From a virus (Duplodnaviria; Heunggongvirae; Uroviricota; Caudoviricetes): a stretch of DNA of 4,877 nt. The number at the start of each line of letters is the position of its first letter. The first letter of the stretch is position 1. Under the pieces are notes generated by a model. That model saw nothing but the letters and a program-made list of their open reading frames with translations, searched no databases and was not told where the DNA came from. The DNA is taken from the IMG/VR virus record IMGVR_UViG_2690316278_000003, one strand, 5' to 3'. Position numbers and translations under genes: made by a program. This document shows positions 1,703-4,877 of this stretch, one piece after another.

Positions 1703-1963
1703 TCACTCATCTTCAAAAGCAGAAAAACCAGCCTTAATCCCAGCTTCTTTCAGAGACGGCAACGATGTGACAAATTCATTTGCACGCGAAATAAAACCAT
1801 CCGTCACAAGCCCATCCACAAAATGAATTAACGCAGCTCCACTCTTCCTTTGTTGAGACTGTAAACATTTAATACGGCAGTGGCTGACAATAGCGCCATT
1901 CTCAACGCGCACAGTATAGAGGCCATCTTCACTAAAAATTTCACGTAATTCTTCGATTTTCAT
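1703..1963 (-). CDS. Rem-like small phage protein (86 aa), paralog of the ORF at 4295..4582
   Basis: ATG at 1963..1961 with GGAAGGA SD 8 nt upstream; begins MKIEELREIFSEDGLYTVRVENGAIVSHCRIKCLQSQQRKSG. About 85% identical at its N-terminus to the second copy. Placement directly downstream of hok mirrors the hokD-rem arrangement of the K-12 Qin prophage (recalled synteny, not a sequence match). Confidence 0.7.
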   Translation of the reverse strand: MKIEELREIFSEDGLYTVRVENGAIVSHCRIKCLQSQQRKSGAALIHFVDGLVTDGFISRANEFVTSLPSLKEAGIKAGFSAFEDE

Positions 1964-2083
1964 CAACAGAATCCTTCCAGATAAATAGCACTCCCCTGTT
2001 CGGGGTCCATCCCTCTTCTCCCTGCGCGCTACTTAAGTATTTTTGATTCTATTCCGGCACCATCTAAAACTTCAAACGCGTTG

Positions 2084-2115
2084 AAAATAAAAACAAAAAC
2101 CCGCCGAAGCGGGTT
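2084..2115 (-). terminator. Rho-independent terminator downstream of hok copy 1
   Basis: Minus strand reads CCCGC-TTCG-GCGGG followed by TTTTTGTTTTTATTTT (plus-strand stem 2100-2104/2109-2113, A-tract 2084-2099). Confidence 0.6.
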
Positions 2116-2183
2116 AAGTGTGGGTGCATTGAGGATGCCTGACCCATCAGAGGTGGCGAGGGATTTCTCCCCCGCCTGGTCTC

Positions 2184-2339
2184 TTACTCCTCAGGTTCGT
2201 AAGCTGTGAAGACAGCGACCTCCGTCTGGCCGGTTCGAATTCGTACCTCGCAGAGGTCTTTCCTCGTTACCAGTGCCGTCACTATGACGGTTAAACAGAT
2301 GACGATCAGGGCGATTAACATCGCCTTTTGCTGCTTCAT
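2184..2339 (-). CDS. hok: Hok/Gef-family type I membrane toxin (51 aa)
   Basis: Hand translation from ATG 2339..2337: MKQQKAMLIALIVICLTVIVTALVTRKDLCEVRIRTGQTEVAVFTAYEPEE, matching the Hok/Gef family and closely the HokD/RelF sequence as recalled. Strong SD AAGGAGAAG upstream. The track ORF 2184..2396 is the same frame with a 19-codon in-frame upstream extension (MNGKSRLASYVPKGKEKQA) that lacks an SD. Confidence 0.9.
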   Translation of the reverse strand: MKQQKAMLIALIVICLTVIVTALVTRKDLCEVRIRTGQTEVAVFTAYEPEE

Positions 2340-2404
2340 AGCCTGCTTCTCCTTGCCTTTCGGCACGTAAGAGGCTAACCTAGATTTGCCGTTCATAGAT
2401 TGAG

Positions 2405-2469
<65 letters not shown>

Positions 2470-2471
2470 GC

Positions 2472-2548
2472 TGGCCCACCACCGAGGACTCGAACCTCGC
2501 ACCGTCAACTTAGAAGGTTGATGCTCTATCCGGATGAGCTAGTGGTGG
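2472..2548 (-). tRNA. tRNA-Arg (anticodon UCU)
   Basis: Minus strand CCACCAC-TA-GCTC-ATCCGGATA-GAGC-A-TCAAC-CTTCTAA-GTTGA-CGGTG-CGAGG-TTCGAGT-CCTCG-GTGGTGG-G-CCA. All 7 acceptor pairs, anticodon stem and T-stem form; 77 nt with encoded CCA. Anticodon TCT in a 7-nt loop. Confidence 0.85.
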
Positions 2549-2549
2549 T

Positions 2550-2626
2550 TGGTGGCCCTTGCTGGACTTGAACCAGCGACCTGGCGATTATGAGTCGCTC
2601 GCTCTGACCAACTGAGCTAAAGGGCC
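2550..2626 (-). tRNA. tRNA-Ile2-like (anticodon CAU, ileX/ileZ type; automated tools may call it tRNA-Met)
   Basis: Minus strand GGCCCTT-TA-GCTC-AGTTGGTCA-GAGC-G-AGCGA-CTCATAA-TCGCC-AGGTC-GCTGG-TTCAAGT-CCAGC-AAGGGCC-A-CCA; 77 nt, acceptor fully paired, CCA encoded. Acceptor and T-arm closely resemble E. coli ileX as recalled. Separated from tRNA-Arg by 1 nt. Confidence 0.85.
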
Positions 2627-2635
2627 GGAGGCAGA

Positions 2636-2665
2636 ATAATAACCATATGTCATCACATCTGCAAA
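2636..2665 (-). promoter_or_regulatory. Candidate sigma70 promoter for the tRNA cluster (weak -35, good -10)
   Basis: Minus strand TTTGCA/TTGCAG (2665-2659), 17-18 nt spacer, TATTAT (2641-2636), then GC-rich CTGCCTCC before the tRNA-Ile 5' end at 2626. By-eye hexamer match only. Confidence 0.25.
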
Positions 2666-2815: not shown

Positions 2816-3370
2816 TCAAAAAGCAATAACTTTTTTCTCTATACCAAAAGCCATAACCATTGGTTTGTACAAAATAAATTCTGCCACCTTTAGCCAATGC
2901 TCAATGCGTCTTTCACAGGTTCTTAAACTCCATTTCGGGTGTGCATCATTCAGCAGTTCAGCCATTTTGCGTTTGGTCATCCCCCGCCCCTCATACCGTT
3001 GCCGAAGGACGCTAATCAATCCTGGATGCTCTGCCAGCACCTCACTTATGACCCGATCAATACATAACGCCTCTGCATCAGTACAATGCGCCAGCCAGCT
3101 CTTTTGCTTACCGTTAATCATATCCCGCAAAAAAGCCTCAAGTTCAGACTTGTTCAGACCTGCTTTTTTCATCCTCCGGAGCGCCTCGTTAATTGCCGTT
3201 TTTGTCAGCTTTTTAGAGGTCAACATCAGGTTAAACATATTCCCCGTCTTACCGCCACCAATATACGACCAGCGCCCCCACATACGTAGTTTTCCCTGAA
3301 TCCAGACACTTTCCAGCGTGGTGAGACGAAGGTGTTCTCCGCTTTTTCCTGTATTCGTTGGGTAAATCAT
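2816..3370 (-). CDS. Putative late-gene regulator in the antiterminator-Q position (184 aa); assignment by synteny only
   Basis: ATG at 3370..3368 preceded by AAGGAGG, overlapping the YbcO-like stop (TTATGA). Product begins MIYPTNTGKSGEHLRL. Sits between a ybcO-like gene and the terminator/tRNA cluster, where Q lies in lambdoid and Stx phages. No Q sequence motif recognised. The 40-codon upstream extension in the track is rejected. Confidence 0.55.
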   Translation of the reverse strand: MIYPTNTGKSGEHLRLTTLESVWIQGKLRMWGRWSYIGGGKTGNMFNLMLTSKKLTKTAINEALRRMKKAGLNKSELEAFLRDMINGKQKSWLAHCTDAEALCIDRVISEVLAEHPGLISVLRQRYEGRGMTKRKMAELLNDAHPKWSLRTCERRIEHWLKVAEFILYKPMVMAFGIEKKVIAF

Positions 3371-3657
3371 AAATATCCCTCCTTTCTCCAGATTTCTTGT
3401 GTGCGAAAAACACCTTCTGCATGCATCAGGCGTAATTCTTCTTTGGTGTAATCGCTGGTTTTTACCCGCCCGTCGATTAAATCGTGGCACGAGCTACAGG
3501 CAATCGCTGCCTGCATATCGTGTGGCTTTATCGCTGTTCCGCACGTTCCCGCCAGTCGGTAATGCGCCAGCACAGACGTTTCCGGATCGTGATTGCAGTA
3601 GCCAGGAATTCTGACGGTGCACATCTGCCCCCGCGCCGCTTTACGTAAATCCACCAT
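3367..3657 (-). CDS. ybcO: YbcO-like (DUF1364) phage protein, putative nuclease, 96 aa
   Basis: MVDLRKAARGQMCTVRIPGYCNHDPETSVLAHYRLAGTCGTAIKPHD...IACSSCHDLIDGR matches the recalled DLP12 YbcO pattern (ADLRKAARG..C.VRIPG.CN..PETSVLAH.RL...). ATG at 3657..3655 overlaps the upstream TAA by 1 nt. Confidence 0.85.
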   Translation of the reverse strand: MVDLRKAARGQMCTVRIPGYCNHDPETSVLAHYRLAGTCGTAIKPHDMQAAIACSSCHDLIDGRVKTSDYTKEELRLMHAEGVFRTQEIWRKEGYL

Positions 3658-4256
3658 TACGCAAACTCCAGCAGCTGCGCGGCCACATTTTCGACTTGTT
3701 CCGGAGAGGAAAATTTACGGAACAGAATCCAGTTCCACAGCACATTCAGAACAGATTTATAAACCTGCTGAAACTCGGTTTCGTCCATATTCGCAAACGC
3801 GATAGATTTCGCCCGACACCCACGGCTACCGTCCGGATAAAAATGCTCGGTGTAAAATCCAGCCTGAATGGTTACCCACTCGCGAAAAGCCTCAAACGAC
3901 TTTAGCAATGCCGTATCCCGGGTTCTGCGTGTCGCAACTGTATTCAGATATTGCTCTGCGGCTTCGCTCAGAGCTGGCGTATGTTCCCGGCCTACTGATT
4001 CACACAGGTAATCAACGAAACCGGACACCAGTTTTCGTTCGCGAGGCGTGATCGCCCCACCGACCGGAGTCCAGTAATCGAAACCCAGTTGCAGGAGTTT
4101 GAAAAAACGCTTGTGGAATGCGTAGTTACACACACGCTTAAAGTCTGCGTGTATCCACTCACCTATTTTGATTTGATGCAGAAAATCGCAACTCTCCGGC
4201 GTCGCCGGGAGAAGTAATCCGGAAGAGGTTTGTTTGACCAGTTGTATATGTGCCAT
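3657..4256 (-). CDS. Hypothetical phage nin-region protein (200 aa), possibly DUF1367-family
   Basis: ATG at 4256..4254 preceded by GGAGAAAGCCG; product begins MAHIQLVKQTSSGLLLPATPE. Continuous ORF to TAA at 3659..3657, coupled to ybcO. The track's 14-codon 5' extension has no SD. The DUF1367 suggestion rests on typical prophage gene order and is unverified. Confidence 0.7.
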   Translation of the reverse strand: MAHIQLVKQTSSGLLLPATPESCDFLHQIKIGEWIHADFKRVCNYAFHKRFFKLLQLGFDYWTPVGGAITPRERKLVSGFVDYLCESVGREHTPALSEAAEQYLNTVATRRTRDTALLKSFEAFREWVTIQAGFYTEHFYPDGSRGCRAKSIAFANMDETEFQQVYKSVLNVLWNWILFRKFSSPEQVENVAAQLLEFA

Positions 4257-4294
4257 CGGCTTTCTCCGGTGGCACGGTGTTACACAGCAGGAGT

Positions 4295-4582
4295 TCAATC
4301 CTGCTCAAGATTGTAGATGAGTTTATTCTTCAGCAAAAGCAGAAAACCAGCCTTAAAACCAATCTCTTTCAAAACCCGTAATGATGTGACAAATTCGTCC
4401 TCACGCAAAATAAAACCGTCCGTCAGAAGTCCATTACAAAAATAAAATAACACAGCACCGCTCTTCCTTTGTTGAGATTGCAAACATCTAATGCGGCAAT
4501 GGCTGACAATCGCTCCATTCTCAACGCGCACAGCATAGAGGCCATTTTCACTAAAAATTTCACGCAATTCTTCGATTTTCAT
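4295..4582 (-). CDS. Rem-like small phage protein, second copy (95 aa, divergent extended C-terminus)
   Basis: ATG at 4582..4580 with GGAAGGA SD; MKIEELREIFSENGLYAVRVENGAIVSHCRIRCLQSQQRKSG. Paralog of 1703..1963; the C-terminus differs after KAGF because of a 1-nt difference in a homopolymer. Confidence 0.7.
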   Translation of the reverse strand: MKIEELREIFSENGLYAVRVENGAIVSHCRIRCLQSQQRKSGAVLFYFCNGLLTDGFILREDEFVTSLRVLKEIGFKAGFLLLLKNKLIYNLEQD

Positions 4583-4700
4583 CTTCAGAATCCTTCCAGA
4601 TAAATAGCTCTCCCCTGTTCGGGGTCCATCCCTCTTCTCCCTGCGCGCTACTTAAGTGAGTCGATTCTATCTGCGAAGGTGCGCGAATCAAATTCACCGG

Positions 4701-4754
4701 AAATAAACAACAAAAAACCCGCCGAAACGCTGAGAGATCACAGCGATGGGCGGG
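4701..4754 (-). terminator. Rho-independent terminator downstream of hok copy 2 (extended two-part stem)
   Basis: Plus-strand CCCGCC (4718-4723) pairs with GGCGGG (4749-4754), with an inner CGCTG/CAGCG stem. On the minus strand it is followed by a T-rich tract (plus-strand A-tract 4701-4717). Positional homolog of the 2084-2115 terminator. Confidence 0.5.
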
Positions 4755-4831
4755 TTAAGTGCGGGTGCGTTGAGGATGCCTGACACATCAGAGGTGGGCG
4801 GGGATGGGATCAGCTCCCCGCCCGGTCACTC

Positions 4832-4877
4832 TTACTTCCTGGATTCGTAGTCTACGAAGACAGCGACCTCCGTCTGG
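4832..4877 (-). CDS. hok: Hok-family toxin, second copy, partial (C-terminal 15 codons plus stop; rest beyond the right edge)
   Basis: Minus-strand translation of 4877..4832 gives ...QTEVAVFVDYESRK then TAA, homologous to the C-terminus of hok copy 1 (QTEVAVFTAYEPEE) and other Hok/Gef proteins. Embedded in the duplicated module. Confidence 0.7.
   Translation of the reverse strand, partial: QTEVAVFVDYESRK

Follow-up and report, generated by a model that had tools for sequence, protein, structure and literature searches.

Introduction

In plasmid R1, PNPase and RNase II shorten the hok primary transcripts of 398 and 441 nt to a mature mRNA of 361 nt (Faridani et al. 2006, PMC1635323), and a stem-loop in the 3' untranslated region (UTR) halts this 3'-to-5' exonucleolytic trimming and stabilises the truncated, active mRNA (PMC1635323; PMC9841398). 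Among 22 substitutions in the 3' UTR that lead to a loss of toxicity, 19 disrupt a CG pair of the terminal stem (Le Rhun et al., PMC9841398), and in the case of two substitutions, G345A and C358A, the truncated hok mRNA is lost (PMC9841398). The literature on R1 hok already describes this element, including where it lies, how it is conserved and what it does; the hokD gene of Escherichia coli K-12 has the same hairpin.

Here we analysed a stretch of 4,877 nt (hereafter, the window) that carries two copies of hok, each with a GC-rich hairpin just 3' of its stop codon. An earlier note on this DNA had tentatively read these hairpins as the fold-back-inhibition (fbi) element of the hok mRNA. We conclude, with a probability of about 0.82, that they represent the 3' road-block stem-loop of the hok family, which in the R1 hok mRNA occupies nt 342-359, and so the note was a correct sighting of a known element under the wrong name.

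Results

Organisation of the window

The window represents part of a lambdoid prophage that is read on the minus strand, and all the features described below lie on that strand unless otherwise stated. In the order of transcription, the window starts with the 3' end of hok copy 2 (CDS 4832..4877, ending in QTEVAVFVDYESRK and a stop codon at 4834..4832), whose CDS is cut by the window end, followed by a rem-like ORF (4582..4295), DUF1367 (4256..3657), YbcO (3657..3367), a DUF1133/Q-like antiterminator gene (3370..2816), tRNA-Met(CAU) and tRNA-Arg(UCU) (2626..2472), a tRNA-Thr(UGU)-like gene missing its 3' acceptor strand (2404..2469; 33.5 bits, covering tRNA model positions 8-63 only) and hok copy 1 (CDS 2184..2339, 51 aa, stop codon TAA at 2186..2184). 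Downstream of copy 1 lie a second rem-like ORF (1966..1703), a 92-aa ORF and then DUF968. In the Qin prophage, Rem acts as an antirepressor against DicA (PMC10448788).

The product of copy 1 is a toxin of the Hok/Gef family (PF01848, E = 1.2e-23) and is identical to HokD of E. coli K-12; DNA resembling this copy was found in 4,713 of 5,426 complete E. coli genomes, annotated as hokD. The C-terminus of copy 2 was also found in two other loci, of E. coli and Shigella (L012 and L013). When the window as a whole was compared with E. coli, no match exceeded 80% coverage, the best one having 80% coverage and 90% identity. The two hok and rem-like modules (1640-2400 and 4260-4877) lie 2.6 kb apart and are 86-91% identical to each other 3' of the hairpin, and the window resembles two nin-type regions in a head-to-tail join. 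In addition, we observed a strong terminator-like hairpin, AAAGAGCCCGCUUUAUGCGGGUUUUUUU, just 3' of the Q-like gene (2716-2789), which gives a weak isrK-shaped Rfam match (19.9 bits) and probably serves as a tR'-type terminator for a short leader RNA that a late promoter would produce ahead of the tRNA genes.

Structure and stability of the two hairpins

Since hok is encoded on the minus strand, the relevant hairpin RNA is the reverse complement of the sequence as it was presented. Sequence inspection and folding confirmed both hairpins at the positions given in the earlier note. That of copy 1 spans the 22 nt from 2176 to 2155 and reads GGCGGGGGA-GAAA-UCCCUCGCC, forming nine base pairs closed by a GNRA-type tetraloop; the A-C mismatch described previously becomes a G·U wobble when the sense strand is considered, and so all nine are standard pairs. 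The hairpin of copy 2 (4823..4796) reads GGGCGGGGA-GCUGAUCCCA-UCCCCGCCC, with nine base pairs and a loop of 10 nt. The spacer between the stop codon and the hairpin, given earlier as eight to nine nt, is 7 nt in copy 1 and 8 nt in copy 2.

Both hairpins are more stable than nearly all shuffled sequences, with an energy of -18.8 kcal/mol for copy 1 (z = -4.2; none of 200 shuffled sequences was as good) and -20.9 kcal/mol for copy 2 (z = -2.8; 3/200 shuffles as good). In an ensemble fold of the whole putative transcript of copy 1 (2406..2088), all the pairs of its hairpin formed with probabilities of 0.96-1.00.

The earlier note had further claimed that pairing is preserved by compensatory changes between the two copies. 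This part proved overstated, as the stem core, GGCGGGGA/UCCCCGCC, is common to both and not a single stem pair is substituted on both sides; each copy merely has one extra pair, at a different place (the mid-stem G·U in copy 1 and a G-C near the base in copy 2). Compensatory substitutions were found only across the wider hok family (in four of eight pairs, see below). The loops of the two copies also differ, GAAA in copy 1 and 10 nt in copy 2, the latter (GCUGAUCCCA) resembling a 5-nt tandem duplication, AUCCC-AUCCC; this hairpin variant is present in L012 and L013 as well. Among hokD loci, G·U, A-U and G-C are all seen at the mid-stem position, a normal route of pair-preserving change.

Conservation and covariation across hok loci

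We assembled 143 hok loci, consisting of 53 loci drawn from one genome per species, 80 IMG/VR prophage contigs and 8 plasmid loci, and taking in also hokA, hokB and hokE of K-12 and one intact hokD locus of E. coli. These span hokA/B/C/D, the R1/F-type hok of plasmids, and loci of Kluyvera, Photorhabdus, Erwinia and Pantoea. A stem-loop of dG <= -10 kcal/mol starting 6-9 nt past the stop codon was found in 137 of the 143 loci, compared to 92 of 1,700 shuffled controls (5%). The median energy of these stem-loops is -17.3 kcal/mol, and in 121 of them the loop is of 4 nt, mostly GNNA. The six exceptions comprise two IS186/IS421-type insertions in the hairpin (K-12-type hokC and hokE), two frameshifted pseudogenes and two single mismatches in the stem. 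The two insertions occur at the same relative site, between GGGGAGURAUCCC and AUAAGCGC, in E. coli hokC (L015, ~868-880) and in K-12 hokE (L065, ~8455-8470), and the hairpin fits what we take to be the GC-rich target type of IS186, GGGG-N6-CCCC.

To count pair changes, we used a gap-free alignment of 26 nt (A3) holding 23 distinct hairpins of 8 bp with a tetraloop, from various genera and plasmids. A MAFFT alignment of 48 diverse 42-nt segments (A2) was left out of the counts, having misaligned the 9-bp, 10-nt-loop, R1-type and hokB variants, and a model-based alignment (A4), in which the near-palindromic stem mixed sense and antisense matches, was used for sense/antisense scores only. In A3, all 184 of 184 cells pair, and four of the eight pairs changed on both sides (CG to UA, GC to AU twice and AU to GC). 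Such two-sided changes numbered 0.6 ± 0.7 in shuffled alignments (0/500 reached four) and 0-2 when the partners were slid by 1-3 columns, though these controls remove phylogenetic relatedness incompletely. RNAalifold, run on 16 diverse 3' UTR starts with no structure given, likewise returned the hairpin as the sole consensus helix in the first 70 nt.

We then built a covariance model from the 23 hairpins of A3, none of which comes from the window, and scanned the window with it. The best two matches were exactly the two hairpins, on the minus strand (22.2 bits, E = 9e-5 and 18.5 bits, E = 1e-3), and in loci with both strands among the matches of the model, the sense strand scored ~10-20 bits above the antisense. 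These higher sense scores, together with the G·U pairs that are formed on the hok sense strand, fix the strand of the element. Moreover, the homologous hairpins measure 18, 20, 22, 24 or 28 nt, and as these lengths do not differ by multiples of three, an overlapping ORF is excluded as the source of the conservation. The proposal that selection acts on RNA structure at this site, put forward from the two copies, is thus supported by the wider family.

Correspondence to the R1 stem-loop

In the F/R1-type plasmid locus, numbered from the 5' end of the hok mRNA (GGCGCUUGAGG...), the hok stop codon occupies nt 330-332 and is followed 9 nt later by the hairpin GGCGGGC-GCAG-GCCCGCC, at nt 342-359. 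Both G345 and C358 lie inside this stem, the mature end at nt 361 falls 2 nt past the hairpin base at nt 359, and the fbi core, GAAGCGCC, begins at nt 391. The hairpins of the window match this element in position and in sequence and therefore correspond to it, and the order of the module, namely hairpin, fbi homologue and terminator, is kept in both copies. By analogy with R1, we infer that the road-block and stabilising function carries over to the hokD-type copies, a 3' processing stop at their hairpins being extrapolated from R1.

A GC-rich stem of 9 bp directly after a stop codon might also be an intrinsic terminator or attenuator of hok itself, or the terminator of a convergent transcript of the plus strand. 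We consider this highly improbable, as the hairpin is followed by no U-run on either strand (sense, ACCUCUGAUG; plus, TGGTCTCTTAC), no gene of the plus strand converges on the site, and a terminator scan found only the canonical one, 40 nt downstream (2115..2098 plus a T-run); the missing U-run and the presence of this terminator together exclude such a role. The intrinsic terminator of copy 1 (2089..2115) consists of AACCCGC-UUCG-GCGGGUU and a U-run, and that of copy 2 (4705..4756) has the same CCCGCC/GGCGGG stem, with an insertion of 24 nt in its loop, and then a U-run. The insertion carries a 5-bp hairpin of its own. In copy 2, both stems were kept despite the duplication in the hairpin loop and the insertion in the terminator loop.

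The outline of this segment, ~80 nt of hairpin, spacer and terminator, is similar to that of isrK, and the Rfam isrK model (RF01394) indeed matched 2094..2175 with 25.7 bits and the intact hokD locus L002 with 24.9 bits; like isrK, the segment is located near an antirepressor gene. That it encodes an isrK-like, Hfq-binding sRNA nevertheless has next to no probability. The score reaches half of the value of 50 bits set as gathering threshold, the model finds nothing in copy 2, and what was matched is only the shape of a hairpin plus terminator and the loop string AAAUC. True isrK RNAs, in contrast, score 72-76 bits, have covarying stems and a CAAAAUC loop, and adjoin the C4 antisense RNA in P1-type (C4/ant) immunity modules with no hok nearby, and their sequences are unrelated to those examined here.

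The fbi element lies 3' of the hairpin

The reading of the earlier note, according to which the hairpin is or carries the fbi element and controls translation and Sok binding by pairing with the mRNA 5' end or with the Shine-Dalgarno (SD) sequence of hok, has some appeal: fbi, like the hairpin, is a GC-rich element of the hok 3' UTR, and short GC-rich strings are common to the hairpin arms and to tac and fbi (in copy 2, GCGGG and CCCGC). Yet fbi is single-stranded and complementary to the 5' end of the mRNA (tac), whereas the hairpin is complementary to itself. We found a true fbi homologue in both copies, a CUCAAYGCACCCRC motif located 21 nt 3' of the hairpin. In copy 2 it reads CUCAACGCACCCGC (4774..4761) and forms 13 bp, with one bulged C, with the tac of intact hokD loci, GCGGGUGCUUGAG; in copy 1 it reads CUCAAUGCACCCAC (2133..2120), departing from the majority CUCAACGCACCCGC at two positions, and that copy has no tac to partner it. 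The CUCAACGCACCCGC motif, with its GCACCC core, is invariant in an alignment of 16 3' UTR sequences and is also present in hokA and hokB of K-12, while R1/F-type plasmid loci have GAAGCGCC in its place. A full leader, beginning with GCGGGUGCUUGAGGC and carrying the hokD-type tac, was found in 74 of 81 loci (the 80 prophage contigs and L002), and in 60 of these 74 the fbi partner of tac is exactly CUCAACGCACCCGC.

Energy calculations pointed to the same element. The duplex of fbi with the tac of intact hokD loci reached -21.8 kcal/mol in copy 1 and -27.2 kcal/mol in copy 2, and that of the hairpin with tac only -9.4 and -15.0 kcal/mol, respectively. The latter are weaker than the self-fold of the hairpin (opening cost, -17.3 and -19.4), and so opening the hairpin would not be repaid. 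In a sliding scan of each 3' UTR, the best partner of tac was found at 2136..2118 and 4777..4759, that is, at the fbi motif, and the hairpin was accordingly rejected as a candidate fbi element. The R1 numbering separates the two elements in the same manner (fbi from nt 391, hairpin at nt 342-359).

Pairing of the hairpin with the hok SD, another suggestion of the earlier note, fared no better, as the duplex of the two (-9.5 kcal/mol) is on a par with those of shuffled hairpins (-9.6 ± 2.5 kcal/mol), and in the ensemble fold of the copy 1 transcript the SD pairs with upstream leader bases or with the terminal U-run. Taken together, these data render the fbi reading of the hairpin very improbable, and they place the real fbi of hokD-type loci at 2133..2120 and 4774..4761.

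Copy 1 has lost its leader

The notion that hok has lost its 5' leader proved right for copy 1. Intact hokD loci are homologous to it only from 2406 onwards, a position inside the SD of mok, where GAGG is changed to CUGG, and the Rfam sok/leader model (RF01794) scores it at 19.5 bits, matching only the 3' third of the model, compared to a gathering score of 59 and to 102.1 bits in the intact locus L002. The residual leader (2340..2406) retains a mok-type ATG (2396..2394) in frame with hok and the hok SD, AAGGAGAAG (2354..2346), and lacks tac, most of the leader that is targeted by Sok and the mok SD. Copy 1 therefore has an fbi homologue and no tac, and in copy 2 fbi is present and the leader region lies beyond the window end at 4877.

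In place of the lost leader sequence, the tRNA-Thr(UGU)-like gene, which is not called by ARAGORN, is fused directly to the remaining leader at ~2405/2406, placing a leaderless hok downstream of the Q-like gene and the phage tRNA genes. A search for this tRNA-hok junction in 5,426 complete E. coli genomes, IMG/VR and the JGI metagenomes yielded no match, which indicates that it is either recent or artefactual; the junction is a product of rare (illegitimate) recombination or an assembly chimera. It is this replacement of the 5' control region by a truncated tRNA gene, and not the hairpin, that is the locally unusual feature of the window.

Examination of the leaders of other loci provided two additional observations. 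In the L067-L146 subfamily, the upstream ATG is likewise in frame with hok, and the ~15 nt that follow the mok-type ATG (corresponding to 2393..2379 of the window) are hypervariable, occurring in at least 10 versions between near-identical flanks and alongside identical HokD proteins; this segment is presumably a Sok-recognition region that is diversifying. A plasmid locus of Enterobacter cloacae (L062) has the gene order relB-relE-hok, as in relBEF of K-12, together with an R1-type Hok and the hairpin GGCGGGG-GAAA-CCCCGCC, which suggests either more than one origin of the relBE-hok fusion or its movement as one block.

With its leader gone, the hairpin of copy 1 could be a passive relic, inherited from a recently rearranged intact locus, without present function and possibly not expressed at all. 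An intact prophage locus carries exactly the 3' UTR of copy 1, which leaves no time for decay; the genomes and metagenomes searched lack the tRNA-hok junction, and no promoter-like site was found directly upstream of hok copy 1, the nearest one lying upstream of the tRNA genes (2665..2636). Against this, the K-12-type hokD located behind relBE is leaderless too and its hairpin is still intact, and a stable 3' stem-loop shields any mRNA from 3' exonucleases, with or without a leader. We regard this possibility as unlikely, though not negligibly so, and it bears on the present utility of the hairpin and not on the identity of the element.

Discussion

How the road-block stem-loop may operate in the two copies can be outlined from the R1 system. 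A downstream intrinsic terminator ends the primary transcript of complete hok/Sok loci, and this transcript is kept inactive by pairing of the 3' fbi with the 5' tac. 3'-to-5' exonucleases (PNPase and RNase II in R1) then slowly strip off the tail that carries the terminator and fbi and halt at the base of the GC-rich stem-loop; what is left is a truncated mRNA that ends in this stem-loop, is refolded, can be translated and is very stable. Copy 2 may follow this classical scheme if its leader is intact, its truncated mRNA being either bound by Sok or translated. In copy 1, with the truncated tRNA gene in place of tac, the Sok target and the mok SD, fold-back control cannot operate and the regulatory purpose of trimming is gone; there, the hairpin and the terminator may act only as a generic stabiliser, protecting the 3' end of whatever transcript covers hok. 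Such a transcript could be initiated by a Q-dependent late promoter or at the promoter-like site (2665..2636), reading through from the tRNA genes in the latter case.

One aspect of the conservation is not readily accounted for by this scheme. Four pairs at the outer end of the stem, GGCG/CGCC, hardly vary in sequence across Escherichia, Photorhabdus, Erwinia and plasmid loci (A3; loci L003-L066), although the Hok proteins of these loci fall to 33-39% identity and the hairpin loops vary freely. This near-invariance exceeds the need of a pure stability role and hints at a further constraint. We therefore raise, as a long shot, the possibility that the hairpin is also read in a sequence-specific manner, beyond serving as a barrier to exonucleases; the reader could be a protein or RNase that determines where trimming stops, and other options are a short-lived alternative pairing as the RNA folds during transcription, and recognition at the DNA level, the last being an option on which the IS186-type insertions at the same spot in K-12-type hokC and hokE bear. 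If true, leaderless copies such as copy 1 would retain this reading as their sole hok-specific control at the post-transcriptional level.

The conspicuous conserved hairpin that follows prophage hok genes is, in our view, the known processing-stop and stabiliser stem-loop, and as such has little discovery value; it may be of more use in annotation. Rfam holds no family for the hok 3' UTR, the leader alone being modelled, as 'sok', and the small covariance model built here picks out the element in the subfamilies tested, for the most part chromosomal and prophage loci of the hokA/C/D type, together with some plasmid hok loci.

Compared to the R1 stem-loop, the hairpins of the window are alike in lying close to the stop codon (9 nt in the R1 type, 7-8 nt in the window), in being GC-rich stems of 7-9 bp that begin with the same GGCGGG...CCCGCC, and in preceding fbi and the terminator, copy 1 sharing a tetraloop as well. 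They differ in their details, the R1 stem having 7 bp and a GCAG loop and those of the window 9 bp, with a G·U pair in copy 1 and a 10-nt loop in copy 2, as well as in the length of the tail to be trimmed (37-39 nt in R1, compared to ~65 nt in copy 1 and ~90 nt in copy 2). Unlike R1, copy 1 also lacks the 5' elements that make trimming regulatory.

A closer relative of copy 1 is hokD (relF) of the Qin prophage of K-12, which encodes the identical Hok protein, carries the same 22-nt hairpin and is also leaderless, the two being ~97% identical in DNA over a stretch that begins shortly before the SD, includes the 3' UTR and extends to rem. In K-12, however, the leader is replaced by relBE, which is followed by hokD, its 3' UTR, rem and ydfU, with homology starting at position 2353 of the window, whereas in copy 1 it is replaced by the truncated tRNA-Thr gene, downstream of the Q-like gene, and homology to intact loci starts at 2406. 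Unlike K-12 hokD, moreover, the window holds a second, diverged hok-rem module 2.6 kb away. Finally, generic 3' stem-loop stabilisers, such as terminator hairpins and REP elements, are also stable stems near the mRNA 3' end that impede PNPase and RNase II; the hok hairpin is set apart from them in being internal to the primary transcript and terminal only after trimming, and in being specific to its family, at a fixed distance from the hok stop codon.
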